Origin: an uncultured Saprospirales bacterium | GTDB lineage: Bacteria; Bacteroidota; Bacteroidia; Chitinophagales; CAJXBJ01 | DNA length: 64,000 nt | Assembly (NCBI GenBank): GCA_913050195.1 | Contig: CAJXBJ010000002.1 | Span: 1,818 to 65,817, forward strand | Direction of reading: 5' to 3' | In this document: one piece after another, positions 8,516 to 59,757 of the stretch | How the letters are laid out: each line of letters opens with the position of its first letter | Position numbering within the stretch: position 1 is the first letter of the stretch | Made by a program: the position numbers and the translations under genes | Notes under the pieces: generated by a model | Seen by the model: only the letters and a program-made list of their open reading frames with translations | Told to the model about the DNA's origin: nothing | Database searches by the model: none

Positions 8516-8517
8516 AT

Positions 8518-22968: not shown

Positions 22969-22986
22969 AAAACTAAATTTATACAT

Positions 22987-23853
22987 ATGCCAAGAATAGT
23001 AAAATCAGGATTAATTCAATGCGGCCTTCCAATTAGTGAAGGTGAAGGCACCATTCAGGAAATTTGTCAGGCAATGCTTGATAAACATATTCCATTTATA
23101 GAAGAAGCAGGTAAAAAAGGAGTTCAAGTCCTTTGTTTACAAGAGATATTCAATACACCATATTTCTGCCCAGGTCAAGATAAAGCATGGTATGCATCAG
23201 CGGAAACTGTACCTGGGCCAACCACTGAAATCATGCAGCAATATGCAAAAAAGTATGATATGGTTATAGTGGTGCCTTTATATGAAAAAGAAAGTGCTGG
23301 CTTCCTTTATAATACGGCTGCGGTCATTGATGCAGATGGCACATATCTTGGCAAATACCGAAAGAATCATATTCCACACACATCAGGTTTCTGGGAAAAG
23401 TTTTTCTTTAGACCAGGCAATCTGGGCTATCCAGTATTTGAAACTAAATACGCTAAAGTTGGTGTTTATATTTGTTACGATCGACATTTTCCAGATGGTG
23501 CTCGTTGCTTAGGACTAAATGGCGCTGAAATTGTTTATAATCCTTCTGCAACAGTATCTGGCCTTTCTCAATACTTATGGAAACTTGAACAGCCTGCGCA
23601 TGCCGCTGCCAATGGTTATTTTATGGGTTGCATTAACAGAGTTGGAACGGAAGCACCATGGAATTTGGGCAAATTTTACGGAAACTCTTACCATGTTGAC
23701 CCAAGAGGACAAATTATTGATTGCGCTTCTGAGGATAATGATGAACTTTTAATCTCTGAATTTGATTTAGATATGATTGAAGAAGTAAGATCAACTTGGC
23801 AATTCTACAGAGATCGAAGACCTGAAACTTATGGTCCACTCGTAGAGCTTTAG
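22987..23853 (+). CDS. Beta-ureidopropionase (N-carbamoyl-beta-alanine amidohydrolase), nitrilase superfamily
   Basis: CN-hydrolase triad context: 'LCLQEIFNTPYFC', 'YRKNHIP' and 'VGVYICYDRHFP'. The gene sits in a pyrimidine-catabolism context. Confidence 0.7.
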   Translation: MPRIVKSGLIQCGLPISEGEGTIQEICQAMLDKHIPFIEEAGKKGVQVLCLQEIFNTPYFCPGQDKAWYASAETVPGPTTEIMQQYAKKYDMVIVVPLYEKESAGFLYNTAAVIDADGTYLGKYRKNHIPHTSGFWEKFFFRPGNLGYPVFETKYAKVGVYICYDRHFPDGARCLGLNGAEIVYNPSATVSGLSQYLWKLEQPAHAAANGYFMGCINRVGTEAPWNLGKFYGNSYHVDPRGQIIDCASEDNDELLISEFDLDMIEEVRSTWQFYRDRRPETYGPLVEL

Positions 23854-23880
23854 TCAAAAACAAAATATTTCATTATATTT

Positions 23881-23917
23881 AATAACGGGAAGCATGAACC
23901 TTCCCGTTATTTTTTTC
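23881..23917 (+). terminator. Rho-independent terminator
   Basis: AATAACGGGAAG (23881-23892) pairs with CTTCCCGTTATT (23900-23911) around a 7-nt loop, followed by a T-run. Confidence 0.7.
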
Positions 23918-23942
23918 GTTTAACCTATCTGAAAAATGCAAT

Positions 23943-25238: not shown

Positions 25239-25249
25239 ATTAAAATAAT

Positions 25250-28342: not shown

Positions 28343-28558
28343 CAGTTTTGATATTTAGATCATCAATTTATCTTCAAGATATCAATTAATTGTAAGGGTA
28401 AAAAAGATAGTTATTATACACAACACCTAACAATTCACTTTACTAGATTAATTATTCTATATTTTTTCTTATTTTGAATTGATTAATAACTTATGATTTT
28501 CATATAGAGTTAGCAGGCCTAAAGATTTGTGCGTATTTTAGTAATGCAATATTTAGCT

Positions 28559-30328: not shown

Positions 30329-32637
30329 AGTGTAAAAACCATTTTTACTGTATAATTCTGAGGAGCATCCATTAATCCAATGCGTCTGAAGTATTCATCA
30401 TTAGTTATATTCTTTCCTATAAAGCTAAGATTGATATTTTCTTTTACATCATAGGCAATTCTAATTGAATGCAAAACATCATAATCTCCATTATTGTCTA
30501 TGTATGTACCTAAGTGAGAAACTGCTTGCTCATACAATAAAGGTATTTTCTCAGGAAAGCTCATAAAGTTAAGATTGTATCCAACTCTAAATTTTTTCCA
30601 CTCCAATTCTATATCAGCCTTTAAAATATGCCTTGTCCTAAAGGCTAATATCTTATTTTCTAATTCTACCGCTTCTCCATCGCTATTGGTATAATCTTCA
30701 TATCGATTACCCATACCCCAAATAAAATTAGAAAAATACGTGCCCAAATTTCGCTGGCTTGAATCACCACCTAAGTCAGCTGGATAATTGTAAGAATACC
30801 CCAATAAGGTATTAATATTTACCTCACCAACTGTGCCCTTTCCAAAAACAGAAAGCTCATAACCCGCAACTCTTGAATCCGGCAGATTAAGTGGCTTTAA
30901 ACCTAAGTCATCTAATGTTGGCGCATTGCCTTCTTCTGGATAAAGGCCTAATGTATATTCAACAAAGTTTTTATATTCATTTAAGAAAAACGCTCCATCC
31001 AAGAATGCAGAAAAGTTACCAAAGTCAATTCTATGCTTCAGGCCTAATTCAGACCCCCATCCTGTTTCTGCTGCTAAATCCTGATTAGGTACAATTTTTA
31101 AGCCTGAAAAACTTGCAGAAATAAAGCGCTCCCCTATTGATGGTAATCGATAGGCCTGGCCTAACGATGCGCGAATTGAAGTTTTAGGCTTTAATTTATA
31201 ATTTAAACCAGCCCTAAACACTGGCAAAGCCGTTGAATATATTATATCCACTGCTGAAAGTTCATATCTAGCCCCCCCCATTATGCTAACTTTATCTTTA
31301 ATGTATTCTATTTGAGAATAAAACGCAGCGGCTCCTGTTGCTCTCCAACCCTCATAAAGATTACTTTTAGCAATCCCTACTTGTAACGGAAGACCGCTTA
31401 CAAGTTGTAGGTTATCATTAATTTTTTTCTGAAACTGATAATCCACCATCAATAAATTAGAATTAAATTGACTAGCATTATCAGATGGTAATCGTGTCAC
31501 ATTGAGAAATCTACCACGGACCTTATGATTATCTCCATTTTCCTTAACATATGTCCAATGAGGGTCTATATTATAACGTACATACTCATCATTACTACCA
31601 TCTAATCTGCGGTAAGCATTATCTAGAGCATCTTCTGCCAAAAAGAAGCGGCCACTATTTTCATACATGACATTTCCATTTACCCCATACATTAAGCCTG
31701 GCTTATCCGGATCTCTATAACGCAATTTAAAATTCGCACGATAACGCAATTCATCTCCTTTCCATAAGTATGAGAAATTATTGTAAAAATTAGCTCCAAC
31801 AACAACATCTGTATTTTTATATCGCTGGGCATGCGAAAAACTTAATCCTGTAAAAGACGGATGCTGCACATCCTCCCACCATACCATTTCTGGACGTGGT
31901 GGAGCTCCATATAAACCATGGAAAATTGATAACTTAGTTTCAGGTTCTGCCCCTGGCCATTTCGTAATTAAATTCACTATTCCATTTAAAGCTGAGGAAC
32001 CATAAACAACAGAGGCTGCTCCTTTAACCACCTCTATCTTATCCATAATTTCTATGGGGGCTTGCTTCATTTGAGGGTCATTCAAATCAGCACTAATCAT
32101 ATTCAGGTTATCAACTAAAACAGCAGTTCGAGCACCAACGCCATATGACCATGCACTTCCACCTCTAATAAGAATCTGTCCTTCCTGAACTTGCACACCT
32201 ACACTTTTATCTACAGCTTCACCTAATTCTATGGCATTGTTATTTTCTACCAAACTTGCATCTAATACATCCATAGAAATATTCTCTACAAGCATTTCTT
32301 TTTTATAGTTACTAGCTGACACTACATAAACATCTAGCTGATTACTTTTTTCCTGAAGAGTAATATTTAAATCAAGAACTTGATTATCCTCAATAAGTAT
32401 TTTTCGCTTGGTATTTTGAAAACCCATATAGGAAAAACGTATTTGGTATTCTCCGTTTCCAAGTTCAATCTTATAATCACCATTAATATCAGTTACTGTG
32501 CCCACAGAAACATTCGTCATAATATTGACACCAATTAAGCCTTCGCCTTTAACATCAGTCACCTTCCCTTTGATTCCTCCCAACTGTCCCCATACTGGCA
32601 AAACAGTTATCAGCATTAAAATACACAGTAAACGCAT
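30325..32637 (-). CDS. TonB-dependent receptor with CarboxypepD_reg-like N-domain
   Basis: 'GKVTDVKGEGLIGVNI…DINGDYKI', and the plug 'IEVVKGAASVVYGSSALNGIVNLITK', followed by a long beta-barrel. Confidence 0.85.
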   Translation of the reverse strand: MRLLCILMLITVLPVWGQLGGIKGKVTDVKGEGLIGVNIMTNVSVGTVTDINGDYKIELGNGEYQIRFSYMGFQNTKRKILIEDNQVLDLNITLQEKSNQLDVYVVSASNYKKEMLVENISMDVLDASLVENNNAIELGEAVDKSVGVQVQEGQILIRGGSAWSYGVGARTAVLVDNLNMISADLNDPQMKQAPIEIMDKIEVVKGAASVVYGSSALNGIVNLITKWPGAEPETKLSIFHGLYGAPPRPEMVWWEDVQHPSFTGLSFSHAQRYKNTDVVVGANFYNNFSYLWKGDELRYRANFKLRYRDPDKPGLMYGVNGNVMYENSGRFFLAEDALDNAYRRLDGSNDEYVRYNIDPHWTYVKENGDNHKVRGRFLNVTRLPSDNASQFNSNLLMVDYQFQKKINDNLQLVSGLPLQVGIAKSNLYEGWRATGAAAFYSQIEYIKDKVSIMGGARYELSAVDIIYSTALPVFRAGLNYKLKPKTSIRASLGQAYRLPSIGERFISASFSGLKIVPNQDLAAETGWGSELGLKHRIDFGNFSAFLDGAFFLNEYKNFVEYTLGLYPEEGNAPTLDDLGLKPLNLPDSRVAGYELSVFGKGTVGEVNINTLLGYSYNYPADLGGDSSQRNLGTYFSNFIWGMGNRYEDYTNSDGEAVELENKILAFRTRHILKADIELEWKKFRVGYNLNFMSFPEKIPLLYEQAVSHLGTYIDNNGDYDVLHSIRIAYDVKENINLSFIGKNITNDEYFRRIGLMDAPQNYTVKMVFTL

Positions 32638-32710: not shown

Positions 32711-33400
32711 TCAATCTTGCTTAATGACGGATTGAACAATTAGATACTGAGCAATAATATAAGTTGACATAATGAAAATACTTGATAAGGGAAATGGATA
32801 GCCAAAAGTACTAATGGCAATCATCATATCGGAAAGCATAAATAAGAAAGCCCCATAAAAGCTCAATTTATATACAAGTTCTTGACCAATACCCCAGCGA
32901 TTTAAACTACTTAAAAGCATCATAATTATTATAATTGTATAGCATAATACAGGAATGGCTAAACCCTTCATATTATACCATAGTGACCAATTCAATAAAA
33001 CCCCAAGCATCAAAAAAGGTAACACCAGCATAATATACTCCTTAATAAATCCATTGCTCCAACCCATTCCTGAGCCAATAGTGAATATATATATATAAGC
33101 TATATGAGCACAGAAAAATGCGGCCATGCCAATCAGAAAACAATTATCAAAACCAAGCTGATTCAACAATAAAAAAACATCGCCTACACCGGAAAAAAAC
33201 AAAGCTACAAGAAGCCCCCTAAAACGGGTTATATGCATATCCTTTTTAGTAACATAATTAACAATGACTAAAAACATCAACAAAGGCATTAATAATGGCT
33301 TTGTAAACATATGCCAACTCTGTATTGAAACAATTACATGCGTGAGACATTCTAAAAAGGCTATCACTAAAAACAATAGCTGTATTGCCCTAAGTACCAT
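32711..33400 (-). CDS. YhhN-family protein (lysoplasmalogenase-like, TMEM86 homologue)
   Basis: About 8 TM helices in 229 aa. 'LFFSGVGDVFLL' and 'FLFMLSDMMIA' are YhhN-type blocks. The gene overlaps the upstream gene by 11 nt. Confidence 0.7.
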   Translation of the reverse strand: MVLRAIQLLFLVIAFLECLTHVIVSIQSWHMFTKPLLMPLLMFLVIVNYVTKKDMHITRFRGLLVALFFSGVGDVFLLLNQLGFDNCFLIGMAAFFCAHIAYIYIFTIGSGMGWSNGFIKEYIMLVLPFLMLGVLLNWSLWYNMKGLAIPVLCYTIIIIMMLLSSLNRWGIGQELVYKLSFYGAFLFMLSDMMIAISTFGYPFPLSSIFIMSTYIIAQYLIVQSVIKQD

Positions 33401-34607
33401 TTGTCCTTATTAAGATAATCAAGTATAACAATGAGCTTAAAAGAATAGCTAGTACAATATAAAAAGCAAGTGATGTTATAATTGTTAATTCCATAAACCA
33501 ATATGCTATACAGATTGACATAAAGCAACGAATTGCATCTATTTTAAAAGCCCATTTTTTATCCTGCAACAATTTTGAGCAAGACCAAATACTAAATAAT
33601 AAAAATAGACTTCCAGCCATCTGAACATGGCTATTAAATCCTTTGAATTGCATCATAAAAAATGCTGTATAGGCCAATATAAATAAGTATTGAATAAGCG
33701 CATAAATACTTAAATGAAGAGATAATGGAAGGTTATATTTCTTATAGCTAGCTCTATCTATTTTAGAAGGCAGTATTGGACCACCCATATAGTCAGGCAT
33801 CCATCCAGGTTTATTAAAAAGGACTTTAAGCCCATCTAATGGTGATTTCACTTTGACCAATATTTTGGCTAAGCTTTTGAAGTGCGCAAAATTAGCCCAT
33901 ATAGGGTCCCATGAATTTATAGGAATAGTAATCCCATAGGTTGGTCTTTCTTCTTCTTCTTGAAAGGTTCCAAATAGCTTATCCCATATTATAAAAACCC
34001 CTGCATGGTTTTTATCAATATATTTTGGATTTTTCCCGTGATGAACTCGATGATGCGACGGTGTATTAAAAAGTATTTCAAACCATCCCATTTTATCTAT
34101 TGATTCTGTATGTATCCAAAACTGATATAGAGTACCAAAAGCATTGGCTAGCACAAAGTATTTTGGATCAAAACCGATTACAGCCAATGGGAAATAAAAG
34201 AAAAAAGTAAAAAATATTTGAAAACTACTCTGCCTTAAAGCAACAGAAAGATTATAATCTTCACTCTGATGATGAACAACATGTCCACCCCAAAATAAAC
34301 TTACTTCATGGCTCTTTCGGTGAGCCCAGTAATAACACAAATCGACGAGTATAAACAGAATCAAAAAAGTCCACCAGTTATTTGATATTGTCCATATCCT
34401 TAAATACTCGTAAATAAATACATAAACACCTACACTAACTATGGTTAAAAAAAAGCCACTAAGCTGCTGAATGATGCCACAACTTATATTAGTGATTGCA
34501 TCACTAAGACGGTAATGATTATCTTTTTTCCAATGCTGAAACAAAAGCTCTATAACTATCAAGCCAAAAAATACAGGTATTGCTAATATAATTGGTCCCA
34601 TATCCAT
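33390..34607 (-). CDS. Fatty-acid-hydroxylase-superfamily membrane oxygenase, alkylglycerol monooxygenase (AGMO/TMEM195)-like
   Basis: His boxes 'HRKSHEVSLFWGGHVVHHQSEDYNLSVALRQ' and 'TPSHHRVHHGKNPKYIDKNHAGVFIIWDKLFGTF'. As I recall, these mirror animal AGMO more closely than the sterol desaturases. Confidence 0.65.
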   Translation of the reverse strand: MDMGPIILAIPVFFGLIVIELLFQHWKKDNHYRLSDAITNISCGIIQQLSGFFLTIVSVGVYVFIYEYLRIWTISNNWWTFLILFILVDLCYYWAHRKSHEVSLFWGGHVVHHQSEDYNLSVALRQSSFQIFFTFFFYFPLAVIGFDPKYFVLANAFGTLYQFWIHTESIDKMGWFEILFNTPSHHRVHHGKNPKYIDKNHAGVFIIWDKLFGTFQEEEERPTYGITIPINSWDPIWANFAHFKSLAKILVKVKSPLDGLKVLFNKPGWMPDYMGGPILPSKIDRASYKKYNLPLSLHLSIYALIQYLFILAYTAFFMMQFKGFNSHVQMAGSLFLLFSIWSCSKLLQDKKWAFKIDAIRCFMSICIAYWFMELTIITSLAFYIVLAILLSSLLYLIILIRTNGT

Positions 34608-34692: not shown

Positions 34693-35193
34693 ATGAGATC
34701 CTTGCAAGATTGGCTTGATGCCTATGGTGTTTCTCACACAAACAAAACAAATAAGTTAATACATTGGATATGTGTACCTGTAATATTTTTTAATGTTATT
34801 GGTTTACTCTCCTGTATTCCGCATGATTTTCTAAGCAATTTAGTTCAAGCAGATAGTGTATTAACAGAATACATGCATTTTGGAACGCTAGTAGTTATAT
34901 TAGGAGGTGTTTTTTATTTACGTTTATCACCAACTATGTTTGTTGGTATTTTATTATGGTCTATATTTTGCCTTTGGGGGAATATTCAGCTTGCCAAATT
35001 AAGCCTAGGAGGAATGAACATACCTTTATGGCAATCTTCATTAGCGTTATTTGTCTTAGCTTGGATAGGACAGTTTGTAGGACATAAAATTGAAGGTGCA
35101 AAGCCTTCATTCTTTGAGGACTTACAATTTCTAATGATTGGTCCAGCCTGGCTAATGGCATTTATATACCAAAAGCTAGGCATAAAATATTAA
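34693..35193 (+). CDS. DUF962 / Mpo1-like membrane protein (2-hydroxy fatty acid dioxygenase family)
   Basis: 'YGVSHTNKTNKLIHWICVPVIFF' and 'GQFVGHKIEGAKPSFFEDLQFLMIGPAWL' match the YGL010w/Mpo1 family blocks. Confidence 0.75.
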   Translation: MRSLQDWLDAYGVSHTNKTNKLIHWICVPVIFFNVIGLLSCIPHDFLSNLVQADSVLTEYMHFGTLVVILGGVFYLRLSPTMFVGILLWSIFCLWGNIQLAKLSLGGMNIPLWQSSLALFVLAWIGQFVGHKIEGAKPSFFEDLQFLMIGPAWLMAFIYQKLGIKY

Positions 35194-35248: not shown

Positions 35249-36766
35249 TCATACTCTGTACAGAGCATCCATATATTTTTTTAATAGTGTACTAACTGAC
35301 CCTCTTAAGGGCATAGAAGATGCCAAACCATAAACAGGGGCCATGCCTCCCGATTTCTTTTCTTTATTATTTTTAACTTTTTCAACGGCTTCTTTTAAAT
35401 CTTCAACAAATCGCTCTGCAACTCCCTCTTTCGTTTGTGCATTGGTTAAACATATATGTATACAGTTGGGCCGAATCAAACCATTTAGATTCCAATGCCT
35501 TTCTCCCATAAAGTCTAAAATCTCGAAGATATTATGTTCTGAATTAGTAGTGGTAAAAGAAATATTATAAAATGGCTCTCCCAGTATTTTTAATTCTGGA
35601 ATTGCATCGATTCCTTTTTTGATAGTATTGGCAGCGGTCATTATATTTTTAGCAATATTCATAAACCCTTCTTCACCAATAGATACAAGGCTAGCCCAGC
35701 ATGCAGCACTAAGGGCTCCAGATCGACTACCTGCCATTGTTGGGGAAAAATAAATACCTCCTGGCCATTCCGTATAAGTAAAGTATTGATAACTCCTTAA
35801 TTTCTCAGTACGATACAATACTACAGAAGTACCTTTAGGTGCAAAACCATATTTATGTGTATCTGCTGAAATAGATGTAACCCCATCCAAAGAAAAATCA
35901 AACGTAGGCACATTATAACCAAGCTTTTTAATCCATGGTAAAATAAAACCACCGAGACAAGAGTCTACATGTAAGCCAACATTATACTTTATGGCTAATT
36001 TAGAAAGCTTTGGAATAGAATCTACTACTCCCTGTGGGAATTGGGGAGCCGACCCTACAATAACAATTGTATTTGAGTTAATTGCTTTTTCTAATTTCTT
36101 AACATCAACTTGAAAATTCTTATCTACAGGTATTCTACGCAGCTTTATTTTTAAATACTCAGCAGCTTTATTAAAAGCAACATGAGCGGTGATAGGAATA
36201 ATCATTTCAGGCTTAGTGATACCCTTCTCTTTCCTTGCATAATCTCGATATGTCTTAATTGCCATTAATATGCTCTCCGTACCACCTGAAGTCACGGCTC
36301 CACAAACCTTGTCTGCACAATCTTTAGCGCCAAGCATATTTGCCGTCATAGACACAATCTCTGCCTCGTATTTAGCAATTGATGGAAATAAGTCTGAGTG
36401 TAAAGGATTCGTTTGAGAATTTATATTATAAACCTCATTCATAAAATCAATATGCTCCTGATAACCATGATAAACAGTTCCAGAACAATAACCCCCACCC
36501 CATCTTTGACTTTCTTCTTCTACTATTTCTCTCATTTGCTTTCTTATCTCATCATAAGAAACTCCTTTTGATGGCAGCTCTACATGCTTTTGGTAGCGTC
36601 CGTCATAGGGCCTAATTGTCTTATCTAACTCTTCCATTAAATCATTAGTCTGTTTTTCTATTTCTTTTTGAACTGCTGGTATTTTATCCAATATGTTTTT
36701 TTCAAGAAAATCAACCCAGCTACTAGGTAATGAACCAAGTTTATTTATGATGGCATCTTTATTCAT
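35249..36766 (-). CDS. Sphingosine-1-phosphate lyase-like PLP enzyme
   Basis: 'NPLHSDLFPSIAKYEAEIV', 'GGTESILMA', 'SADTHKYGFAPKGTSVVLY' (PLP lysine) and 'GGIYFSPTMAGSRSGALSAACWA'. These are very close to eukaryotic SGPL1/Dpl1 blocks as I remember them. Confidence 0.85.
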   Translation of the reverse strand: MNKDAIINKLGSLPSSWVDFLEKNILDKIPAVQKEIEKQTNDLMEELDKTIRPYDGRYQKHVELPSKGVSYDEIRKQMREIVEEESQRWGGGYCSGTVYHGYQEHIDFMNEVYNINSQTNPLHSDLFPSIAKYEAEIVSMTANMLGAKDCADKVCGAVTSGGTESILMAIKTYRDYARKEKGITKPEMIIPITAHVAFNKAAEYLKIKLRRIPVDKNFQVDVKKLEKAINSNTIVIVGSAPQFPQGVVDSIPKLSKLAIKYNVGLHVDSCLGGFILPWIKKLGYNVPTFDFSLDGVTSISADTHKYGFAPKGTSVVLYRTEKLRSYQYFTYTEWPGGIYFSPTMAGSRSGALSAACWASLVSIGEEGFMNIAKNIMTAANTIKKGIDAIPELKILGEPFYNISFTTTNSEHNIFEILDFMGERHWNLNGLIRPNCIHICLTNAQTKEGVAERFVEDLKEAVEKVKNNKEKKSGGMAPVYGLASSMPLRGSVSTLLKKYMDALYRV

Positions 36767-36767
36767 A

Positions 36768-38372
36768 CTACTTTTTTTTATTTAATCTTTTATATATCCC
36801 CTTATTACTTTTGTATATGTTTATGAACTCCTCAAACATTTTATCATAAAGTCCTTTAAGAGCCTTATTTGGCTTATATATTTTGTCTATAATTGTTTTT
36901 TCAGCAATTCCCTCAACATCTATATATCCGAGCCCAATCATAGCTAAAGCAGCAACACCTTTGGCATTGGCATGTCTTGGCTCATTAATTTGTTGAATTG
37001 GACGCTGTAAAATATCAGCAAGCACTTGACACCACAATGCAGACTTTGCACCTCCACCTATAAAGTTTATAAATTTAAATGGACGGTAAGCACTAGGCAC
37101 AAACTTGGATGTCTCAACATACTTTAGCAACCACCTTGCATTAAAGGCAACCCCTTCCATCACAGCGCGTATCATGTGTGCGCGAGTCATGTGCAGACTT
37201 AAATTATGCCATCCTCCACGTACATTATGATCCTCAATCGGTGTTCTTTCTCCATACAACCAGGGCGTAAAAATCAAACCTTCACACCCAGGAGATATTG
37301 TAGCAGCTAGCTCTGTCAACTTTTCAATAATATCTTCATCTGCTGCATCCGTATCCAATATATCTTTAGCAAAAAAGACATTGTTTTTAAGGAACTGTAA
37401 ACATACTGCAGCAGTTTCTTGTTCATTAGCTACAAAATATTTTCCTTCTAAAGCAGATGGCAAACTAGCCATATTATGAAAAACATCTGTCGCCTTATGT
37501 GGTATGTGACAAGTTAAAAATGAAGAAGTACCAAAACAAAGACCTGCTTCATAATCCCTTACAGCTCCAGTACCAATTGCTGCAGCTTGTACATCAGCTG
37601 TACCTCCAAATACCTTAATCCCTACCTTTAAACCTAATTGCTCCGCTATTTCCTTTTTCAATGTACCAATGATATCTATAGGCTTGGCTAAGTCTGGAAG
37701 TTTATCTCTTTCTATCCCTGTCCATTTAAGTAATTTGGGGTGATATTCAATATTATTAATATCTCTATTATCCATAACCCAATGTAAACACATAGTTTCT
37801 GGTGTTGAAACAAACTCTCCTGTTAAAATTAAGTTTACATAGTCCTTGGGCTCCAAAAACTTATATGTCTGTTTATAAACTTCAGGCTTTTCTTTTTTAA
37901 TATATAAAATATGGGCTATAGGATCTTTACCTGAATGCCCGGGCGCACCTCCAGTAATATTCATCCAGCTAAAAATCTTTGTAATTGAATATCCCTCAAT
38001 TTTAACTATACCATCGGTGATACGTTCAATTTCTGATGCCCCTCTTGAATCCATCCATATTATAGAATCCATTAAAGCCTTTCCTTGTTCATCAACGGCC
38101 ACTGTTCCTGACCATTGTGCAGTGACACTGATTGCCTCAATATCTTCAACATGCACAAAACCATTAGATATTAGTCGCTTAGTCGCTGTTTTGATAGCAC
38201 GCCACCACTGATTAGGGTCTTGCTCTGCACCTCCACCATCAAATAATTTTAAATCTATTGGTTCAAATTCTGTCCCAACGACATCAAAATCTGTGGATAT
38301 TATACAAACTTTAGGACCAGAAGTACCAAGATCAATAGCAAGTATGTATTTTTTATTCGGCGTTTTTATCAT
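36768..38372 (-). CDS. FGGY-family kinase (xylulokinase/glycerol-kinase fold), substrate unknown
   Basis: 'ILAIDLGTSGPKV', 'EQDPNQWW' and 'GGGAKSALWCQVLADI' are FGGY N- and C-domain motifs. The stop is 1 nt from the lyase start. Confidence 0.85.
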   Translation of the reverse strand: MIKTPNKKYILAIDLGTSGPKVCIISTDFDVVGTEFEPIDLKLFDGGGAEQDPNQWWRAIKTATKRLISNGFVHVEDIEAISVTAQWSGTVAVDEQGKALMDSIIWMDSRGASEIERITDGIVKIEGYSITKIFSWMNITGGAPGHSGKDPIAHILYIKKEKPEVYKQTYKFLEPKDYVNLILTGEFVSTPETMCLHWVMDNRDINNIEYHPKLLKWTGIERDKLPDLAKPIDIIGTLKKEIAEQLGLKVGIKVFGGTADVQAAAIGTGAVRDYEAGLCFGTSSFLTCHIPHKATDVFHNMASLPSALEGKYFVANEQETAAVCLQFLKNNVFFAKDILDTDAADEDIIEKLTELAATISPGCEGLIFTPWLYGERTPIEDHNVRGGWHNLSLHMTRAHMIRAVMEGVAFNARWLLKYVETSKFVPSAYRPFKFINFIGGGAKSALWCQVLADILQRPIQQINEPRHANAKGVAALAMIGLGYIDVEGIAEKTIIDKIYKPNKALKGLYDKMFEEFINIYKSNKGIYKRLNKKK

Positions 38373-38530
38373 TCTTATTACGATTTTGACTCACATTTCA
38401 ATAAAAATACTTTAATAGTCAAACCATTTTGAAGCATGAAGGTAATTTAAGCACATTCTTTGACATATATTAAATCGATAAATAAATGAATGGCGCTGAT
38501 AAATGCCTTAAAAAGAGAGATAAAAGAATT

Positions 38531-39373
38531 CTATAAAATAGCATTAGGCTTATTCCAATTAAGCCGGGCCTTATTAGCCGACAATATTTCAATGCCTTTT
38601 TCCCAATAATTCCCAACTCCTCCAATACCATGAGAATCATCTCCCGGTACAACCGCTACATCCATTTCAATCGCTTTATTCAATATTGGTAAACTTATAT
38701 AAGGCTCAGGCTGTCCCTTAACTAATGCCCTAAGGTTAAAATCTAATATTAAATTATGTTGTTTAACATAAGCTAAATTACGCTCTATCCTTTCCCATAC
38801 ATCCGGCAATAATAAAGTCTTCTTATACTCTGCATCAAAAATGCGAACTAGATCCATATGTCCAATAACTGACGGATTAAAGGCTTCCATTAATGCATAT
38901 TGAGCATCAAAGTAAGCGCAATACAGAGCTTGCTTTGAACCATATGCACTTATGCATTGACCATAAGTTTTAGGACTTGTATCCATTTCAATACCGGCCA
39001 TATGATGAACTGAACCAACGATATAATCAGGTTTAATTGCATGAATCCAATATTCTATGGCTTCTAAGCATCCTTCGTACCATTCCGTTTCAAAGGCTAC
39101 TAAGATTTCAATATCATTCCTGTATTTTTCTTTCAAATAATGAAGCCTATCTCCATATCGTCGGAAACTATCTTTCATACGTATAGCATTCCAACCAAAA
39201 GGCCTTTCAAAAGAGTAAATCCATTTATCTGATATTGGAGGCATGTGCTCAGTTATGCCAACCCATGAGTAGCCTGCTTTTATATAGGTCAAAATAATAT
39301 CTTCTAAAGCATCCTTTGCATGAAAACAATAAGAAGCTGAATGCCCCCCATGAACTGATACTTTTTGTATCAT
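38531..39373 (-). CDS. PHP-family phosphatase of the HisJ/His2 histidinol-phosphatase type
   Basis: 'VSVHGGHSASYCFHAKDALEDII…GITEHMPP', 'GSVHH', 'IGHMDL' and 'GDDSHG' form the PHP metal-ligand pattern. Confidence 0.75.
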   Translation of the reverse strand: MIQKVSVHGGHSASYCFHAKDALEDIILTYIKAGYSWVGITEHMPPISDKWIYSFERPFGWNAIRMKDSFRRYGDRLHYLKEKYRNDIEILVAFETEWYEGCLEAIEYWIHAIKPDYIVGSVHHMAGIEMDTSPKTYGQCISAYGSKQALYCAYFDAQYALMEAFNPSVIGHMDLVRIFDAEYKKTLLLPDVWERIERNLAYVKQHNLILDFNLRALVKGQPEPYISLPILNKAIEMDVAVVPGDDSHGIGGVGNYWEKGIEILSANKARLNWNKPNAIL

Positions 39374-40428
39374 TTTTGACCATTAAATTTAAATGCCAAA
39401 TAAACTGGTTGGTGATCAGAAAATTTAAAATCCATATTCAGACATTTAACTTCTTGAACTTCAATATTGGGAGATGCTAAATAATAATCAATAAGTGTCG
39501 TATTAGTCACTCCATGTTCATAATACGATAGCATTTGTCGATTAGTTGGAATTGTTGAATCATACAACCATTGCCAATCATCAGGCATAAAGTCGGCCGA
39601 GATATAGGTTCGCATATAATCAGAATCTTCATTAAATATTTTTGGATCAAAATTAGGTGGACACTGATTAAAGTCACCACCAACCAACACATAATTACCT
39701 GCATTATATTCTTTTAAAATAAAATCCTTTAAATATGCCATCTCTGATTTCTTAAGTTGACCCTTATCAAAAGCTGAATTATGATTATTAATTAATATGA
39801 ATTCTTTTTTATCTTCTGTTTTAAATCGTTTTACCAGAATACAACGATCAAGCATTAAGCATGATCGCGGCCAATCATAAGATGAAGGATATTGATGCAC
39901 TTCTACTTGAAATGCTTTTGTCCTACAAAAGCTTGCTAATCCAGATCTAACATACCCAATTGGATCTAAAAAAGGTTTAGGAATAAAATCCACATGTAAA
40001 TTATAGGTAAAGAAAGCCTGATGATCCATTAATAAACTATCGAAACGATATAATTGATTTATATAGTAGGACCTTTTTGATTTAATATCCAATTCCTGAA
40101 AAAGAATAAAATCTATAGATGACATCTGTTGAAGCAGACCTTCTATTCCCTTTAAATTCTTTTTTACATTGACTTTTGTTGTCCGCGCCTGTTTACCGCC
40201 ATCGTAAAAAAAATCAGATTCCTCACCCAAACCAGCATATCCAATATTCCAATTTAAAACTTGATAGAAAGAATCTATTTTTAGATAATCATCACCTATT
40301 TTTTGAGTGCTAATTATTTTAAAATCTTCAGGCTGATAATCCGTAAGTGTAGCATAAGAAAGGATAAGTATTAAGTAAATAATAAAAAGCACAAAAAGGC
40401 TATAAACATAAAGTGCGAAACGCTTCAT
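39370..40428 (-). CDS. Membrane-anchored endonuclease/exonuclease/phosphatase (EEP)-fold phosphoesterase
   Basis: N-terminal TM helix. 'LNWNIGY', 'LFQELD', 'NNHNSAF', 'GGDFN' and 'SDHQPV' are EEP catalytic blocks. There is an ATGA overlap with the PHP gene. Confidence 0.8.
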   Translation of the reverse strand: MKRFALYVYSLFVLFIIYLILILSYATLTDYQPEDFKIISTQKIGDDYLKIDSFYQVLNWNIGYAGLGEESDFFYDGGKQARTTKVNVKKNLKGIEGLLQQMSSIDFILFQELDIKSKRSYYINQLYRFDSLLMDHQAFFTYNLHVDFIPKPFLDPIGYVRSGLASFCRTKAFQVEVHQYPSSYDWPRSCLMLDRCILVKRFKTEDKKEFILINNHNSAFDKGQLKKSEMAYLKDFILKEYNAGNYVLVGGDFNQCPPNFDPKIFNEDSDYMRTYISADFMPDDWQWLYDSTIPTNRQMLSYYEHGVTNTTLIDYYLASPNIEVQEVKCLNMDFKFSDHQPVYLAFKFNGQK

Positions 40429-40430
40429 AT

Positions 40431-43337
40431 TTAGTACTTAAGCCATTTAAATGAATAAGCTTTATCATCACTTTGAATAATAACCTTATACATTCCATAT
40501 GACAAGGCTTGCAAATTTAAATTTTGAGTAATCAGATTAGACTCAAAAACACATTTACCTCCCAAATCAAATATTCTAACAAGATAAGGTTCTGAGTTAA
40601 TTATCCCATCAATATTCAAAATTCCATTAGAAGGATTTGGATAAAATCGAACAGCTTGATTTAAAGCTTCAATAAAGGTTAAGGCACTTACTTGTATACT
40701 ATCTTTTTTTATACATCCCACAGAGTCAATTAATGTCATGGTATATGTACCAGAATCTAAATTATATGCTGTATCTGTTGTTTGTAAAGCATTATCATTC
40801 CAGTTATATTGATAAGGAGGAACACCTCCTGATCCTTGTGCATAAGCCAATCCATCTTGTGCTCCAACACTAGATTCTGGACTGCTTCCAAGACTTAAAT
40901 TAAGTGTATCGGGTATTGCCAAATCAAGCCACATAGTATCTGTCTCACAACCGTGCTGATTTGTAAGCACTATTCCATGCTGTCCGCCAATCTTATTTGA
41001 ATCGATTACAAGGTAAGTAGCATTACCCGGCATGAAATCACTATAAGTGGTATCAATACTACCGTTTGAGTCAATAGACCAATAAGTCACTGAATAAGGA
41101 GCCATTGTATAGTATGTACTAATTTGAATAATGCCATTACTATCCTCGGCGCAAATGGGCCCTTCACCATATGCTTCAGCTATAAAGGTATCTGGCTCTT
41201 GCAAAACAAAATTAAAACTATCTACACATATCGTATTAGATACAGTAACCTGATATGAGTCAACTGCCAAATTAAGGGCAGCATTACCTACATTTGCTCC
41301 ATGGCTCCATATGTATGAATTATTATTACCCACTTGCATATTTGGATAAAGAACAATAATCCCATTCGAATCACCTTTACACACCGGATTAAATTGATTT
41401 GTTGAATCAATAAGAGCTGGCCCTTCACTTAAGGTTACAGAGTCAATAATTACACAGCCTGTTTGAGTAGTTACTGTTATGACATAAGTTCCGGCAGCTA
41501 AATTATTATTGCTATGCCCATTTACGCCATTGCTCCATTGAAAAGTACATGTACTAAATTGACAAGTACACCCTGAGGTTGTAATATCTGCCACACCATC
41601 ACTGCCCCCTTCACAACTTACATTTTGTTGAAACTTATGAATAACATGTGGGTCCTGAATATTGGCAAAATGATCTTCCTTACAGCCATTAGCATCCATA
41701 ATTCTAGCCCAATAAAAATTTGGTTCTAAACCATCTGCTAGACTATCAATAACATTATTGGAAAATTGATAAGTATATGGTGCTTGTCCTCCAATTACAG
41801 TAAAACTCATTTTACCATCACTAGCTCCATTACAGGAAATTTGCTCCACAGAAAAAGTAGCTAAGGGTATTGTATCACAGACCTTACCTTTAAAGTGATA
41901 TTGTCCATTGCTTTCTGTCCCTAGATAATTTGCCCATGCTATACCTTGTGGACCTACAGAGGCATCTAATTCAATTCGATTCAAAAAATAACCTTTAGCA
42001 CCCATGGGATTAAGACTATCTATACCCACTGCAAAAACAATATCTAAAGAATCATTATAATCAAGATCATTTATTAAAGCCGTTGAGCCCAAATTCTGTC
42101 CGTTGGAAGTATGTAGCAAATAAGAAGAGTCATTAAGATAGTCTCGCGCCATTAATTCATGTGACATCACACCCCCATTTGATTGAACAACACTTATAAG
42201 TAGTTCATCATAAGCATCACCATTTAGATCAGCAGCAATACAGGATGAAAACTGCATACTTCCAAAACTATCAATAGCTGTAACTACACCTGTGTAACCA
42301 TCAATCATTACCTGTTTATAATCCGTATACATTGTTTGTGAACCCTCAAATAGAGATAAAACAACATCTGGAATTATATTACCAGTAAAATAGCCAAGTA
42401 CTGGTGCTGCACTTGTTTCAAATCCAATAAAATCATGAGAATGCATTAACCAATACCCACTTCCATCATAAACCCTATATTGCCCATTGTAGCTAATAGA
42501 CACAATATCTAAAGTTGTATTTCCATTTAAATCTCCCAATGATACTGGGGCAATAAAGCCCTCACCTCCACCATTATTGAGAACATAAGCATTGCTCAAA
42601 TCCTCATTAATAAGATCCTGAAGTTTAGAAACATATAGATGACCATTTATAGTCTCCCCTCCAGTTCCATATATAATTTCCAAATCACCATCATTAGCTA
42701 GATCAGCAACTATAGGCGAGCAATAAGTTTCCTGACTATCAGGAACAACAGCCCTTGACAATATTTGTCCTGTTAATGCATCAAGAATCATTAAATGACC
42801 TGGTAAACGATTTGTATCCCAAGGCAAAGCATCTGGGTCTCCTCCATTTGAAACTAATAAATCACTGTACCCATCACTATTCTGATCAGGCAACCATTGC
42901 GCTGAATAAAATTGAAGCTGACCACTATCCTTTGGATTTAAACCATTTGAACTTGGCCAAAACTCCCAAATCAACTGACCTGTCGACCCATTAATAGCCT
43001 TAAAAATTGCGCTACGTCCTCCAATAAACACATCATCAATACCATCACCACTAATATCCTGAAATATTGCACTTCCAAAAACTTCGTCCCTAGCATTTAC
43101 TGACCACAGAACTTGACCATCTTTTCCATCAAAGGCTTGAATTGCATTCAGACGACTTTCTTCTGCAACGCCTCCTCCAACTATAATATCAAGTACACTG
43201 TCATTGTTCAGATGAGCTACTCTAGGACTAGAAAATTGATTTAAAGAATCACTAAATGTAGACCATTGAATTTGCTGGCCAGAAAGGCCAAACAAACAAA
43301 ACATAAATACAAAGCTTAAAAAGCCCTTTTTAATCAT
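40431..43337 (-). CDS. FG-GAP/VCBS beta-propeller + SprB-repeat protein with T9SS type-A CTD
   Basis: Repeated 'DLNGD/DISGDGIDD' FG-GAP calcium loops. SprB-type 'CNGASDG…PYTYQW' units. CTD 'FYPNPSNGILNI…GMYKV'. Confidence 0.8.
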   Translation of the reverse strand: MIKKGFLSFVFMFCLFGLSGQQIQWSTFSDSLNQFSSPRVAHLNNDSVLDIIVGGGVAEESRLNAIQAFDGKDGQVLWSVNARDEVFGSAIFQDISGDGIDDVFIGGRSAIFKAINGSTGQLIWEFWPSSNGLNPKDSGQLQFYSAQWLPDQNSDGYSDLLVSNGGDPDALPWDTNRLPGHLMILDALTGQILSRAVVPDSQETYCSPIVADLANDGDLEIIYGTGGETINGHLYVSKLQDLINEDLSNAYVLNNGGGEGFIAPVSLGDLNGNTTLDIVSISYNGQYRVYDGSGYWLMHSHDFIGFETSAAPVLGYFTGNIIPDVVLSLFEGSQTMYTDYKQVMIDGYTGVVTAIDSFGSMQFSSCIAADLNGDAYDELLISVVQSNGGVMSHELMARDYLNDSSYLLHTSNGQNLGSTALINDLDYNDSLDIVFAVGIDSLNPMGAKGYFLNRIELDASVGPQGIAWANYLGTESNGQYHFKGKVCDTIPLATFSVEQISCNGASDGKMSFTVIGGQAPYTYQFSNNVIDSLADGLEPNFYWARIMDANGCKEDHFANIQDPHVIHKFQQNVSCEGGSDGVADITTSGCTCQFSTCTFQWSNGVNGHSNNNLAAGTYVITVTTQTGCVIIDSVTLSEGPALIDSTNQFNPVCKGDSNGIIVLYPNMQVGNNNSYIWSHGANVGNAALNLAVDSYQVTVSNTICVDSFNFVLQEPDTFIAEAYGEGPICAEDSNGIIQISTYYTMAPYSVTYWSIDSNGSIDTTYSDFMPGNATYLVIDSNKIGGQHGIVLTNQHGCETDTMWLDLAIPDTLNLSLGSSPESSVGAQDGLAYAQGSGGVPPYQYNWNDNALQTTDTAYNLDSGTYTMTLIDSVGCIKKDSIQVSALTFIEALNQAVRFYPNPSNGILNIDGIINSEPYLVRIFDLGGKCVFESNLITQNLNLQALSYGMYKVIIQSDDKAYSFKWLKY

Positions 43338-54737: not shown

Positions 54738-54837
54738 ATTCCTTGAAATTTGGTCGTATTTGTCGTTTTACTTTCATTCCACATTTACTAAATTCACTGA
54801 ATATTAGATTGAATAATTGTATTTTTATATTGATTAT

Positions 54838-59726: not shown

Positions 59727-59757
59727 TTATATTTGATAGCATAAGGTCGTGATATCA

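Follow-up and report, generated by a model that had tools for sequence, protein, structure and literature searches.

This locus raises the question of whether four adjacent genes of an uncultured Saprospirales bacterium, encoding an EEP-fold phosphoesterase, a PHP phosphatase, an FGGY-fold kinase and a sphingosine-1-phosphate (S1P) lyase, form a route of sphingolipid breakdown, as a preliminary description had proposed. The window is the whole 64,000-nt stretch that was analyzed, and all coordinates are positions in it. The proposal stood for the coupling of kinase and lyase, the link to sphingolipids and a kinase that is not of the DAGK fold; the head-group role of the EEP enzyme was not borne out, and the part played by the PHP enzyme was confined to one clade. 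We give a probability of roughly 0.6 to bacterial sphingolipid breakdown by an FGGY-fold sphingoid-base kinase and a lyase of the Symbiobacterium (StSPL) type, extended by the PHP enzyme in this clade. No published description of such a module was found, and the route is probably a previously undescribed one that employs a new type of sphingoid-base kinase.

Gene layout and the S1P lyase

Table 1. Features of the operon and of the genes adjoining it.
Feature	Position	Strand	Evidence
StSPL-type S1P lyase (PLP retro-aldolase), 505 aa	35249-36766	-	ORF + profile/sequence comparison
FGGY-fold kinase, uncharacterized subfamily, 534 aa	36768-38372	-	FGGY_N (8.6e-45) + FGGY_C (5.8e-27)
HisJ/His2-family PHP phosphatase, 280 aa	38531-39373	-	PHP (1.9e-13) + TIGR01856
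Membrane-anchored EEP-fold phosphoesterase, 352 aa	39370-40428	-	weak Exo_endo_phos (4.9e-8) + AF2 model
FG-GAP/SprB-repeat protein with T9SS sorting domain	40431-43337	-	Pfam domains
Mpo1-like (DUF962) protein	34693-35193	+	PF06127, 1.8e-20
FA_hydroxylase-superfamily membrane di-iron enzyme	33390-34607	-	PF04116, 3e-28
YhhN-family membrane protein (lysoplasmalogenase family)	32711-33400	-	PF07947, 7.2e-40
TonB-dependent receptor (CarboxypepD_reg-Plug-barrel)	30325-32637	-	Pfam domains

The four minus-strand genes and all of their junctions had been placed exactly as in our ORF positions. A 2-nt spacer (40429-40430) separates the EEP gene from the FG-GAP gene, with which it is probably co-transcribed; the EEP and PHP genes share a 4-nt ATGA overlap (39370-39373), a 158-bp gap (38373-38530) lies between PHP and FGGY, and a single nucleotide (36767) between FGGY and the lyase. 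Pfam scans of every window ORF of at least 150 aa revealed no DAGK_cat kinase, ceramidase, aldehyde dehydrogenase or serine palmitoyltransferase, and no his or xyl genes near the operon; a tblastn search of the window with a ceramidase query was also negative. The first three absences agree with the preliminary description.

The lyase matched Pyridoxal_deC in Pfam (2.8e-22). It gave 555 bits (E 9e-166) against StSPL (PDB 3MAD) and 423 bits against human SGPL1 (4Q6R), but only 110 bits against the best decarboxylase (MfnA), which puts it far nearer to S1P lyases. The equivalents of StSPL Y105, N126, H129, C276, K311, K317 and the tyrosine of MAPVYG are all kept, and the PLP lysine together with the mapped phosphate-binding and catalytic residues is retained in 35–39 of 39 family members. 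In the tree, StSPL itself nests within a clade of FGGY-linked lyases. These comparisons place the window enzyme in the bacterial StSPL-type S1P lyase family, in line with the earlier call, whose four quoted motifs were all present in the translation. The epithet "strikingly eukaryote-like" is correct as to the shared family but not as to closeness, since identity is 51% to StSPL versus 41% to the human enzyme and the eukaryotic N-terminal membrane anchor is absent; the protein has no N-terminal TM segment and is soluble. StSPL was reportedly found by Bourquin et al. in 2010 to cleave S1P in vitro, and it accepts C18 S1P. Conservation of the phosphate-binding and catalytic residues indicates that the lyase substrate should be a phosphate ester, so that a kinase is needed. 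Standalone lyases without FGGY exist in some Bacteroidota (L176, L178).

The kinase and its pairing with the lyase

The kinase shares at most 26% identity with any solved kinase structure, and its TM-score to GntK and XylB is about 0.8. It keeps the DxGTS phosphate motif, the catalytic Asp (D260) and the GGGA motif; compared with XylB and GntK, it has insertions specific to its family around residues 118-140 and 335-350. All NCBIfam equivalog cut-offs were missed, the best score being that for XylB (293 bits versus a cut-off of 380). Placement inside a defined clade of sugar or glycerol kinases, an outcome that the preliminary description had weighed against its reading, was not obtained, and the scores assign the protein to an uncharacterized FGGY subfamily outside any defined sugar-kinase family. 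We propose it as a sphingoid-base (2-amino-1,3-diol) 1-kinase feeding the lyase.

Among 65 evaluable genomes, namely those with enough flanking sequence around FGGY, the lyase gene lies immediately downstream of FGGY in 30, which belong to many phyla; the two genes are co-directional and separated by a median of about 100 nt. The pair is present in 16 of the 17 loci whose FGGY is at least 50% identical to that of the window (11 of 12 genome loci and all of L086, L087, L089, L170 and L172). It occurs in Myxococcota/Deltaproteobacteria, Leptospirales, Chloroflexota, Actinomycetota, Planctomycetota and Bacteroidota, and many of the phyla that carry it are not known to make sphingolipids. Recurrence in dozens of unrelated genomes makes the adjacency more than chance, and the lack of conservation of the other immediate neighbors makes the cassette look self-contained, which supports a functional coupling of the two enzymes. 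Neighborhood conservation, which the preliminary description had put forward as a check, thus extends across phyla for FGGY and lyase, only within one Bacteroidota clade for PHP, and weakly to EEP. Approximately half of the FGGY orthologues have no linked lyase, and some adjoin a class II (sugar-phosphate type) aldolase.

That an ordinary pentulose/gluconate kinase, an amino-acid decarboxylase, a housekeeping histidinol phosphatase and a nuclease- or phosphatase-type EEP protein merely came to lie together is very improbable. Public annotations do read xylulokinase and glutamate/tyrosine decarboxylase-like, the PHP protein passes the HisJ family cut-off, and the EEP context differs among genomes; however, the adjacency is kept over at least six phyla while every other neighbor changes, the lyase score is five-fold nearer to S1P lyases than to decarboxylases, the FGGY protein falls short of each sugar-kinase equivalog, and his and xyl genes are absent near the operon.

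Sister operons and the sphingolipid link

Four sister Bacteroidota loci (L087/L088/L091, L170, L172) carry an operon in the order TonB-dependent receptor, neutral ceramidase, PHP, FGGY and lyase, with junctions of 5-20 nt among the first four genes and an FGGY–lyase gap of 5-6 nt (L087, L172) or 169 nt (L170). The ceramidase (PF04734/NF041649; 2.2e-69 to NF041649 in L172) holds the position that EEP has in the window. L172 also has a sphingomyelinase-like EEP gene next to the operon (TIGR03395, 8.3e-31), and in Haliangium (L024) a ceramidase gene lies 461 nt from the FGGY–lyase pair. The ceramidase gap in the window had been seen correctly, but the preliminary description missed that sister operons fill it. 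The neutral ceramidase of the closest relatives, with a TonB receptor at the operon head, supports a real link of the operon to sphingolipids.

In the main rival reading, long-chain bases are not the substrate and the cassette instead breaks down a short-chain, soluble 2-amino-1,3-diol or amino-polyol, for instance a serinol-type compound or an amino-sugar alcohol, the kinase acting on the primary hydroxyl beside the amine and the lyase releasing phosphoethanolamine and a small (hydroxy)aldehyde. To our knowledge, all characterized FGGY kinases use small water-soluble sugars or polyols, and the present kinase has the canonical fold and catalytic motifs. Other FGGY branches are partnered by GSA-aminomutase-like transaminases, saccharopine-dehydrogenase-like and gamma-glutamyl-amine-synthetase-like enzymes, which point to amine-bearing substrates; a soluble substrate is favored by sister clades that pair either with such transaminases and class II aldolases (RU1P/FucA-like) or with saccharopine-dehydrogenase-like genes, and by the spread of the pair, with variable neighbors, over many phyla without known sphingolipids. 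The ceramidase within the sister operons and beside the Haliangium pair, the sphingomyelinase-like EEP of L172 and the nesting of StSPL, which accepts C18 S1P, in the FGGY-linked clade argue against it, and we consider it unlikely. In L020 an aldehyde dehydrogenase gene comes directly after the lyase, and in L031 one adjoins the pair; this is compatible with a long-chain or a soluble substrate.

Bacteroidota make sphingolipids, and the module might act on endogenous sphingolipids or sulfonolipid-like lipids in membrane remodelling or turnover, with kinase, phosphatase and lyase controlling how much free long-chain base and LCB-1-phosphate is present, as in the yeast Lcb4/Lcb3/Dpl1 rheostat. 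The rheostat-like presence of kinase and phosphatase in one operon fits this, as do the ceramidases of Bacteroidota, which carry no signal peptide and are therefore cytoplasmic. On the other side, the TonB-dependent receptor at the head of the sister operons and the T9SS cargo genes flanking the operon suggest the handling of substances from outside the cell, many carriers of the pair belong to phyla without known sphingolipid synthesis, and the window scans found no serine palmitoyltransferase. We judge action on endogenous rather than scavenged lipid to be improbable.

The PHP protein is of the histidinol-phosphatase type, as previously described, with 165 bits to TIGR01856 (hisJ_fam, cut-off 90) and a match to histidinol phosphatase 3DCP (2e-15), while its HisJ equivalog score of 111.6 bits is under the cut-off of 133. 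All fetched loci whose FGGY shares at least 63% identity with the window protein retain the gene in the operon, and it directly precedes FGGY in L086, L087/L088/L091, L170 and L172; of the homologues at 45-52% identity in other phyla, 78 of 80 are unlinked to the pair. Its role in the module would accordingly hold only within this Bacteroidota clade, and phosphoethanolamine (or LCB-1-P) is proposed as its substrate. A phosphatase sharing an operon with a kinase could instead oppose that kinase.

The EEP fold and membrane anchor stated in the preliminary description were supported by an AF2 model (pLDDT 91.8; N-terminal helix at residues 2-28) and by Foldseek. Its specific likeness to sphingomyelinases did not hold: TIGR03395 was not matched, a sequence-profile search gave weak ExoIII only, and Foldseek ranked TDP2, ANGEL2, CNOT6L and Nocturnin above nSMase2 (rank 40). 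EEP is conserved at the same operon position only in L086 and L090, and orthologues in other Bacteroidota adjoin Peptidase_M1 and Penicil_amidase genes, not FGGY–lyase. A specific sphingomyelinase was rejected on the missing TIGR03395 match, the generic Foldseek matches and the different neighbors; the place of EEP in the module is uncertain and its link to the pair appears weak. The FG-GAP gene holds the same position in L086 (53% identity), and resembles the T9SS protein of L170 at the repeat level only.

Four adjacent downstream genes had been overlooked: those for the Mpo1-like protein, the FA_hydroxylase, the YhhN protein and the TonB receptor. The Mpo1-like gene is convergent with the lyase gene, 55 bp apart, and its product may be a 2-hydroxy fatty acid dioxygenase that follows the lyase in the pathway. 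In the closest relatives, the contigs stop before this position. The FA_hydroxylase protein, possibly alkylglycerol-monooxygenase-like, has no homologue in any fetched locus, and its gene shares 11 nt with the YhhN gene. TMEM86B, a YhhN-family member, is a lysoplasmalogenase (PMC3520006). The window receptor is 31% identical to the L087 receptor over its full length (E 1.5e-118), a suggestive resemblance to the receptor heading the ceramidase operons; a 27% identical receptor also lies by the unrelated PHP locus L104.

Taken as a pathway, the core would be a two-gene cassette, in which the FGGY-fold kinase adds a phosphate to the 1-hydroxyl group of a sphingoid base (a 2-amino-1,3-diol) and the lyase cuts the C2-C3 bond of the 1-phosphate to give a fatty aldehyde and phosphoethanolamine. 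The latter, a minimal analogue of histidinol phosphate, would most likely be hydrolyzed by the PHP enzyme. In the sister lineages, the cytoplasmic ceramidase would free the base from ceramide, and the operon with its receptor may serve uptake and catabolism (or detoxification) of exogenous sphingolipid. In the window lineage, the gene of the membrane-anchored EEP enzyme takes the place of the ceramidase gene.

Comparison with known systems

The window lyase shares its family and mapped active-site residues with other bacterial S1P lyases (StSPL; Burkholderia BPSS2021/2025; Legionella LegS2). Those of Burkholderia and Legionella have been reported as effectors that are secreted and act on host S1P (PMC12134224, PMC5234717), and no partner kinase has been discussed for them; the word "kinase" does not occur in the Burkholderia lyase paper. 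In contrast, the window lyase is cytoplasmic with its own adjacent kinase. The two-domain fold of the kinase is that of FGGY carbohydrate kinases (XylB, GntK, GlpK, LsrK; TM-score ~0.8), whereas its subfamily has amine-handling enzymes as genomic partners, not sugar isomerases or transporters.

Pseudomonas aeruginosa (CerN, SphR, SphA, SphBCD) likewise handles host or environmental ceramide and sphingosine with a neutral ceramidase from the same Pfam family; there the enzyme is secreted, the set of genes is unrelated to that of the FGGY–lyase operon, and we know of no phosphorylation step or lyase in that response. Actinobacterial amino-alcohol pathways pair an aminopropanol kinase with an amino-alcohol-phosphate phospho-lyase, and they likewise O-phosphorylate an amino alcohol before a PLP enzyme yields an aldehyde, but with an APH-type kinase, a class III PLP family and 1,2-elimination instead of the retro-aldol cleavage expected here.

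Eukaryotes degrade sphingoid bases with the yeast kinases Lcb4/Lcb5, the Dpl1 lyase and the Lcb3 phosphatase, then Hfd1 and Mpo1, or with mammalian SPHK1/2 and SGPL1. The proposed bacterial sequence of ceramidase, 1-phosphorylation and PLP-dependent retro-aldol cleavage to fatty aldehyde and phosphoethanolamine is alike, the window lyase is a true homologue of SGPL1, and an Mpo1-like gene adjoins it. Unlike in eukaryotes, the bacterial genes stand in an operon with a soluble, anchorless lyase and an attached TonB receptor, the phosphatase is of the PHP fold versus the LPP/PAP2 type, and the FGGY/ASKHA-fold kinase would be a non-homologous replacement of the DAGK-fold enzyme.

The lyase and the adjoining kinase

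The genes of the module and their neighbours are collected in the table below. Their coordinates in the ORF listing agree exactly with those of the preliminary description, as do the junctions derived from them: a 2-nt spacer in front of the EEP gene, a 4-nt overlap of the EEP and PHP genes, by reason of which EEP is probably co-transcribed with PHP, a 158-bp gap before the FGGY gene, and a 1-nt spacer before the lyase gene. The lyase peptide motifs quoted there were all found in the translation. Furthermore, the four family assignments (PLP group II decarboxylase superfamily, FGGY, PHP, and EEP) were upheld by Pfam and NCBIfam, the EEP match being weak. The window has a GC content of ~34%, by which, together with its T9SS cargo genes, it is assigned to Bacteroidota. 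A promoter/terminator scan, whose coverage excludes Bacteroidota promoters, returned fewer promoter-like matches than the shuffled expectation.

Genes of the module and of its flanks (positions in the window)
Feature	Position	Strand	Remarks
FG-GAP + SprB repeats + T9SS sorting domain	40431-43337	(-)	968 aa; Pfam
EEP phosphoesterase	39370-40428	(-)	352 aa; ORF listing; Exo_endo_phos weak
PHP phosphatase	38531-39373	(-)	280 aa; ORF listing
FGGY kinase	36768-38372	(-)	534 aa; ORF listing
S1P lyase	35249-36766	(-)	505 aa; ORF listing
Mpo1-like/DUF962	34693-35193	(+)	convergent with lyase, 55 bp apart
FA_hydroxylase-family membrane enzyme	33390-34607	(-)	405 aa; possibly alkylglycerol-monooxygenase-like
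YhhN-family	32711-33400	(-)	overlaps FA_hydroxylase gene by 11 nt
TonB-dependent receptor (TBDR)	30325-32637	(-)	no SusD partner

The lyase matched PF00282 (2.8e-22; Pfam), and a search against all PDB sequences placed it nearest to the S1P lyase of Symbiobacterium thermophilum (StSPL, 3MAD; 555 bits, E 9e-166), followed by human SGPL1 (423 bits), the Burkholderia enzyme (404), and yeast Dpl1 (395). The best decarboxylase score in this search was 110 bits, obtained for MfnA, and the protein stayed under the NCBIfam cut-offs for MfnA and GAD. In a HMMER alignment, the residues matching StSPL Y105, N126, H129, C276, K311, K317, and the C-terminal Tyr of the MAPVYG loop were all identical. These are the residues that we take to be involved in phosphate binding and catalysis, K311 being the PLP lysine; they were reportedly described by Bourquin et al. 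in 2010. The equivalent positions are kept in 35–39 of 39 aligned family members. Such scores and residues sustain the original claim of an S1P lyase, while its description as eukaryote-like holds only loosely, insofar as the protein is a homologue of the eukaryotic enzyme; it is nearer to StSPL (51% identity) than to the human protein (41%), and its N-terminus, MNKDAIINKLGSLPSSWVDF..., contains no hydrophobic segment that would form a membrane anchor. An N-terminal anchor is a feature of eukaryotic S1P lyases only and is likewise missing from StSPL, which indicates a lyase of the bacterial type. Judged by sequence, it is a true member of the S1P lyase family. Since the phosphate-contacting residues are kept, its substrate should be a phosphate ester, which in turn implies a kinase upstream in the pathway. 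The proposed reaction is a retro-aldol cleavage of a long-chain (sphingoid) base (LCB) 1-phosphate.

The gene abutting the lyase indeed encodes an FGGY kinase, in which FGGY_N (PF00370, 8.6e-45) and FGGY_C (PF02782, 5.8e-27) were the only Pfam domains detected. DAGK_cat (PF00781) was absent from this protein and from all window ORFs of at least 150 aa, in agreement with the earlier remark that the window holds no LCB kinase of the DAG-kinase fold. Residues D14, G16, and T17 of the phosphate-1 motif, the catalytic Asp D260, and the GGGA motif (G439-A442) are invariant across the subfamily. As to membership in a defined sugar-kinase family, the protein missed every NCBIfam sugar-kinase equivalog (the best was XylB, 293.5 bits vs a cut-off of 380.25) and shares no more than 26% identity with any solved kinase; by these two measures it lies outside the specificity groups XylB, GntK, GlpK, LsrK, AraB, FucK, and RhaB. 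Its AF2 model (pLDDT 84) gave a TM-score of ~0.8 to gluconate, xylulose, and glycerol kinases and 0.81 to 3GBT. Relative to XylB and GntK it carries family-specific insertions, and an insertion at approximately residues 118-140 is partly of low confidence in the model. Over 5,000 proteins were retrieved for this large subfamily, with orthologues at 53-63% identity; those named belong to Spirochaetia, Leptospiraceae, Anaerolineae, Chloroflexota, Desulfobacterales, Polyangiales, and Bacteroidota. The kinase may have the activity of an LCB kinase without belonging to the SphK/Lcb4/5 family.

Conservation of the kinase–lyase pair

At least 590 FGGY orthologues were identified in a scan of one genome per species, from which 80 loci were retrieved. 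Loci were treated as evaluable when they were non-redundant and offered at least 1.5 kb on both sides (n = 65), and the lyase was regarded as linked when it lay within 1 kb on the same strand. Linkage was observed in 30 of the 65 evaluable loci with a median gap of ~100 nt, and the lyase was located downstream of FGGY in 31/35 cases. The first three loci looked at, from a Bacteroidota MAG, a 5.9-Mb genome, and Leptospiraceae, each possess a ~500-aa Pyridoxal_deC gene directly after FGGY. When the FGGY protein is at least 50% identical to that of the window, the pair is present in 11/12 genome loci, which becomes 16/17 when metagenome relatives are counted; the five closer metagenome relatives (L086, L087, L089, L170, and L172) all contain it. 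In a neighbour-joining tree, the FGGY clade comprising the window, these five loci, L001, and L006 is lyase-linked throughout, and StSPL sits inside the FGGY-linked lyases in the corresponding tree of lyases. A pooled Pfam scan of 120 pair-flanking genes detected no third conserved partner, no family occurring more than three times, so that the pair behaves as a self-contained cassette. From this gene order, FGGY and the lyase very probably belong to a common pathway.

Conservation of the initially proposed four-gene neighbourhood was hence found for its kinase–lyase part, extends to PHP within the window's clade only, and for EEP is confined to the window and L086. The order PHP-FGGY-lyase, with PHP directly upstream of FGGY, is kept in the window, L086, the single lineage represented by L087, L088, and L091, and in L170 and L172. 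Two local arrangements were also seen. In the Bacteroidota MAG locus L001, FGGY and the lyase are separated by a 179-aa ORF (10678-11217) for which neither Pfam nor NCBIfam gave a match, and sulfatase-family genes stand on either side of the pair on the Bacteroidota-like contig L089 (8131-14680), with a third sulfatase nearby.

Sister operons and the accessory hydrolases

A link to sphingolipids was provided by sister operons having FGGY ~63% and lyase 61-63% identical to those of the window. In L087 and L088, which are near-identical copies of one lineage, in L170 (NCBI MAG GCA_022572355.1), and in L172, the genes for a TBDR, a Ceramidase_alk protein (~580 aa), PHP, FGGY, and the lyase follow one another on one strand; a fifth contig of the L087 lineage, L091, ends inside the FGGY gene. 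The junctions of the first four genes measure 5-20 nt; between FGGY and the lyase there are 5-6 nt in L087 and in L172, as against 169 nt in L170. The L172 ceramidase matched the NCBIfam neutral-ceramidase model at 2.2e-69, and its operon has as convergent neighbour a 294-aa EEP protein that matched the bacterial sphingomyelinase model TIGR03395 at 8.3e-31. A ceramidase homologue was also located 461 nt from the FGGY-lyase pair of a Haliangium MAG (L024), on the opposite strand. This protein has a lipoprotein-like signal, and the Bacteroidota ceramidases, without a signal peptide, start at mature-like sequence. An aldehyde dehydrogenase gene comes right after the lyase in L020, a Pirellulales locus, and stands beside the pair in a Streptosporangiaceae locus (L031).

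The ceramidases, the sphingomyelinase-like EEP, and the aldehyde dehydrogenases together suggest a series of three steps, in which the ceramidase of the sister operons would release a free LCB from ceramide, the FGGY protein would convert this base into its 1-phosphate, and the lyase would cleave the latter into an aldehyde and phosphoethanolamine. It is likely that the kinase supplies the lyase substrate from a 2-amino-1,3-diol, and we somewhat favour ceramide-derived LCBs as the physiological substrates in this clade. A further-reaching interpretation, to which we assign a probability of about one half, is that the FGGY subfamily represents a prokaryotic sphingoid-base (2-amino-1,3-diol) kinase of a fold unrelated to known sphingosine kinases, which would form with the StSPL-type lyase a widespread two-gene cassette degrading or detoxifying LCBs. 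Of the module as first proposed, the kinase-lyase logic and the sphingolipid link are supported and the PHP step is plausible, while the role given to EEP found no specific support.

The PHP protein passed the cut-off of the HisJ-family model TIGR01856 (165.3 bits vs 90.2) but remained under that of the HisJ equivalog NF005996 (111.6 bits vs 133). No his genes were detected in the window, or, by ORF clustering, beside 78 unlinked PHP homologues. Its initial description as a histidinol-phosphatase-type enzyme holds at the level of the family. H8, H11, E42/H43, E95, H123/H124, H172, D245/D246, and H248, presumably the expected metal ligands, are invariant among three aligned operon PHPs. PHP is missing from L001 and L089, the relatives at 58% identity, and from the pairs in all other phyla. 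In a PHP-centred metagenome scan, 78 of 80 homologues (45-52% identity) occurred in varied contexts away from FGGY-lyase, which rules out PHP as a constant companion of the pair and indicates a genuine association that is limited to the clade. Being a 2-aminoalkyl phosphate, histidinol phosphate has its minimal analogue in phosphoethanolamine; for this reason, we infer hydrolysis of the lyase product phosphoethanolamine as the most economical candidate role. Alternatively, PHP would dephosphorylate the LCB-1-phosphate and thereby act as a rheostat.

The window contains no ceramidase according to tblastn and to Pfam of all ORFs of at least 150 aa, and no fatty aldehyde dehydrogenase is present in it, both as had been remarked at the outset. 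In place of the ceramidase stands the gene of the membrane-anchored EEP, with the T9SS FG-GAP/SprB gene ahead of it; this layout recurs only in L086 (FGGY 81% identical) and L090 (the same sequence as the window). The T9SS FG-GAP protein was considered as a conserved component and discarded, its similarity beyond the closest relative being at the level of repeats only. Genes for T9SS cargo (CHU_C/Por_Secre_tail) are dense in the window (627-2522, 28529-30328, 40431-43337, and 54817-63270) and include one, at 57864-59726, in which a PhoD-like phosphatase bears a T9SS tail.

The EEP fold of the window EEP was confirmed, but a specific likeness to neutral sphingomyelinase or inositol-phosphosphingolipid phospholipase C was not. 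Unlike the L172 protein, it has no TIGR03395 match in NCBIfam, and its sequence profile gave weak ExoIII matches only against the PDB. Its AF2 model (pLDDT 91.8) matched generic EEP proteins in Foldseek, headed by an uncharacterised Beutenbergia protein, TDP2, ANGEL2, CNOT6L, and Nocturnin, with nSMase2 at rank 40 and similar E-values. The assignment as a sphingomyelinase was rejected on these grounds and because the orthologues keep other neighbours. The EEP family comprises ~900 homologues, mostly of Bacteroidota, at 42-49% identity. In two other genomes, orthologues stand in a conserved block composed of a 105-aa gene, EEP, Peptidase_M1, and Penicil_amidase (L174, 7001-12312; L175, 7001-12367). 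As the penicillin-amidase family includes long-chain N-acyl amidases, this block might be another amide-lipid processing unit.

Other FGGY branches, flanking genes, and known systems

Other FGGY clades in the neighbour-joining tree are accompanied by other partners. One monophyletic clade (L040, L045, L047, L048, L049, L058, L060-L063, L070, and L075) always has a saccharopine-dehydrogenase-like gene (408 aa, weak carboxynorspermidine synthase match), which in most loci is directly upstream of FGGY, the distance being 1-2 kb in L049 and L075. In Acidimicrobiia, FGGY is found with a gamma-glutamyl-amine-synthetase-like gene, with an aldehyde dehydrogenase in four loci, and with a gene read from sequence as C26-peptidase-like in five. 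Several lyase-less clades carry a GSA-aminomutase-like class III transaminase, often together with a class II aldolase (L019, L021, L036, L051, L055, L056, L072, L076, L080, L082, and L083), in what would be a kinase/transaminase/aldolase module; among these loci are several from MAGs of Asgard (Promethearchaeota) and other archaea. The transaminases, which were considered as phosphoethanolamine phospho-lyases, score as GSA-aminomutase-like or GntE-like. A TPP enzyme beside FGGY in L001 and L002 was considered as a 2-hydroxyacyl-CoA lyase and dismissed, the best NCBIfam matches of the L001 protein being models of the acetolactate-synthase large subunit, all under their cut-offs (351 bits vs 538 for the best); the two TPP genes are 28% identical to each other.

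The partners of these other clades all handle amines, and amino alcohols hence fit as the substrate class of the FGGY family. More broadly, all members of the FGGY clade, those of Asgard archaea among them, would be amino-alcohol kinases, with the PLP or dehydrogenase partner varying by lineage. The class II aldolase in some clades keeps alive the alternative that the ancestral FGGY substrates were soluble amino-polyols.

Returning to the sphingoid-base kinase reading, the genes downstream of the lyase, which the preliminary description had passed over, are of interest. Yeast degrades phytosphingosine by way of the S1P lyase Dpl1 and, downstream of it, the 2-hydroxy-palmitate dioxygenase Mpo1; the Mpo1-like gene may therefore extend the module functionally. 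Another Mpo1-like gene was observed ~8 kb from a stand-alone lyase in L178, adjoining Penicil_amidase and Abhydrolase_3. YhhN is the lysoplasmalogenase family (PMC3520006). The FA_hydroxylase and YhhN proteins could constitute an ether-lipid-cleaving pair, which would release fatty aldehydes as the lyase does. With the module, the downstream genes look like a lipid-scavenging island whose predicted enzymes all release fatty aldehydes. No homologue of the Mpo1-like, FA_hydroxylase, or YhhN gene was detected in any fetched locus, the contigs of the closest relatives ending short of this region. Over its full length, the window TBDR shares 31% identity with the receptor at the head of the L087 ceramidase operon, and similar receptors head those of L170 and L172. 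A 27% identical receptor is also found beside an unrelated PHP locus, which makes this likeness only suggestive; it hints at TonB-dependent uptake of a lipid.

Two further gene groups of the window were recorded. At 6749-9837 (-), an RNR small subunit with an N-terminal ATP-cone adjoins a 588-aa large subunit for which Pfam identified the RNR barrel only, an arrangement described in some Flavobacteriia. At 21586-26608 (+), a dihydropyrimidinase-like amidohydrolase, a beta-ureidopropionase-like CN_hydrolase, and a two-subunit dihydropyrimidine-dehydrogenase-like pair make up what looks like a reductive pyrimidine catabolism cluster.

Eukaryotic and Bacteroidota membranes are rich in sphingoid bases, which have antimicrobial activity of their own. 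To our knowledge, bacterial sphingolipid biology has so far been concerned with synthesis, breakdown of sphingoid bases by bacteria being essentially unknown, and we know of no identified source of the physiological substrate for bacterial S1P lyases such as crystallised StSPL. A conserved partner kinase of a different fold offers a directly testable answer regarding that source. If true, the kinase–lyase reading would explain the occurrence of S1P lyases in bacteria without S1P, would give, with receptor, ceramidase, kinase, lyase, and phosphatase, the first complete operon for sphingolipid catabolism in bacteria, and would extend the substrates of the FGGY family by a lipid-type or amino-alcohol class. 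It would also yield an annotation rule for thousands of genes labelled 'xylulokinase' or 'glutamate/tyrosine decarboxylase-like'. The sister operons point to TBDR-linked ceramide use in marine and environmental Bacteroidota.

Work on bacterial S1P lyases has so far treated them either as effectors that are secreted to act on host S1P or as structural models, with no mention of a partner kinase (PMC12134224, PMC5234717). In the open-access full-text literature, nothing was found on a bacterial sphingosine kinase or on an FGGY kinase tied to an S1P lyase or ceramidase, a description elsewhere being possible; this accords with the initial statement that no such module was known in bacteria. Compared with eukaryotic LCB degradation, the window module follows the same pathway logic and its lyase is homologous to the eukaryotic enzyme. 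In contrast, its kinase does not belong to the DAGK_cat family of eukaryotic sphingosine kinases, for which it would be a non-homologous replacement, and the operon form, the PHP phosphatase, and the TBDR have no eukaryotic counterpart. We regard the pathway as a variation on known LCB degradation, in which the predicted enzyme function of the kinase is probably new.
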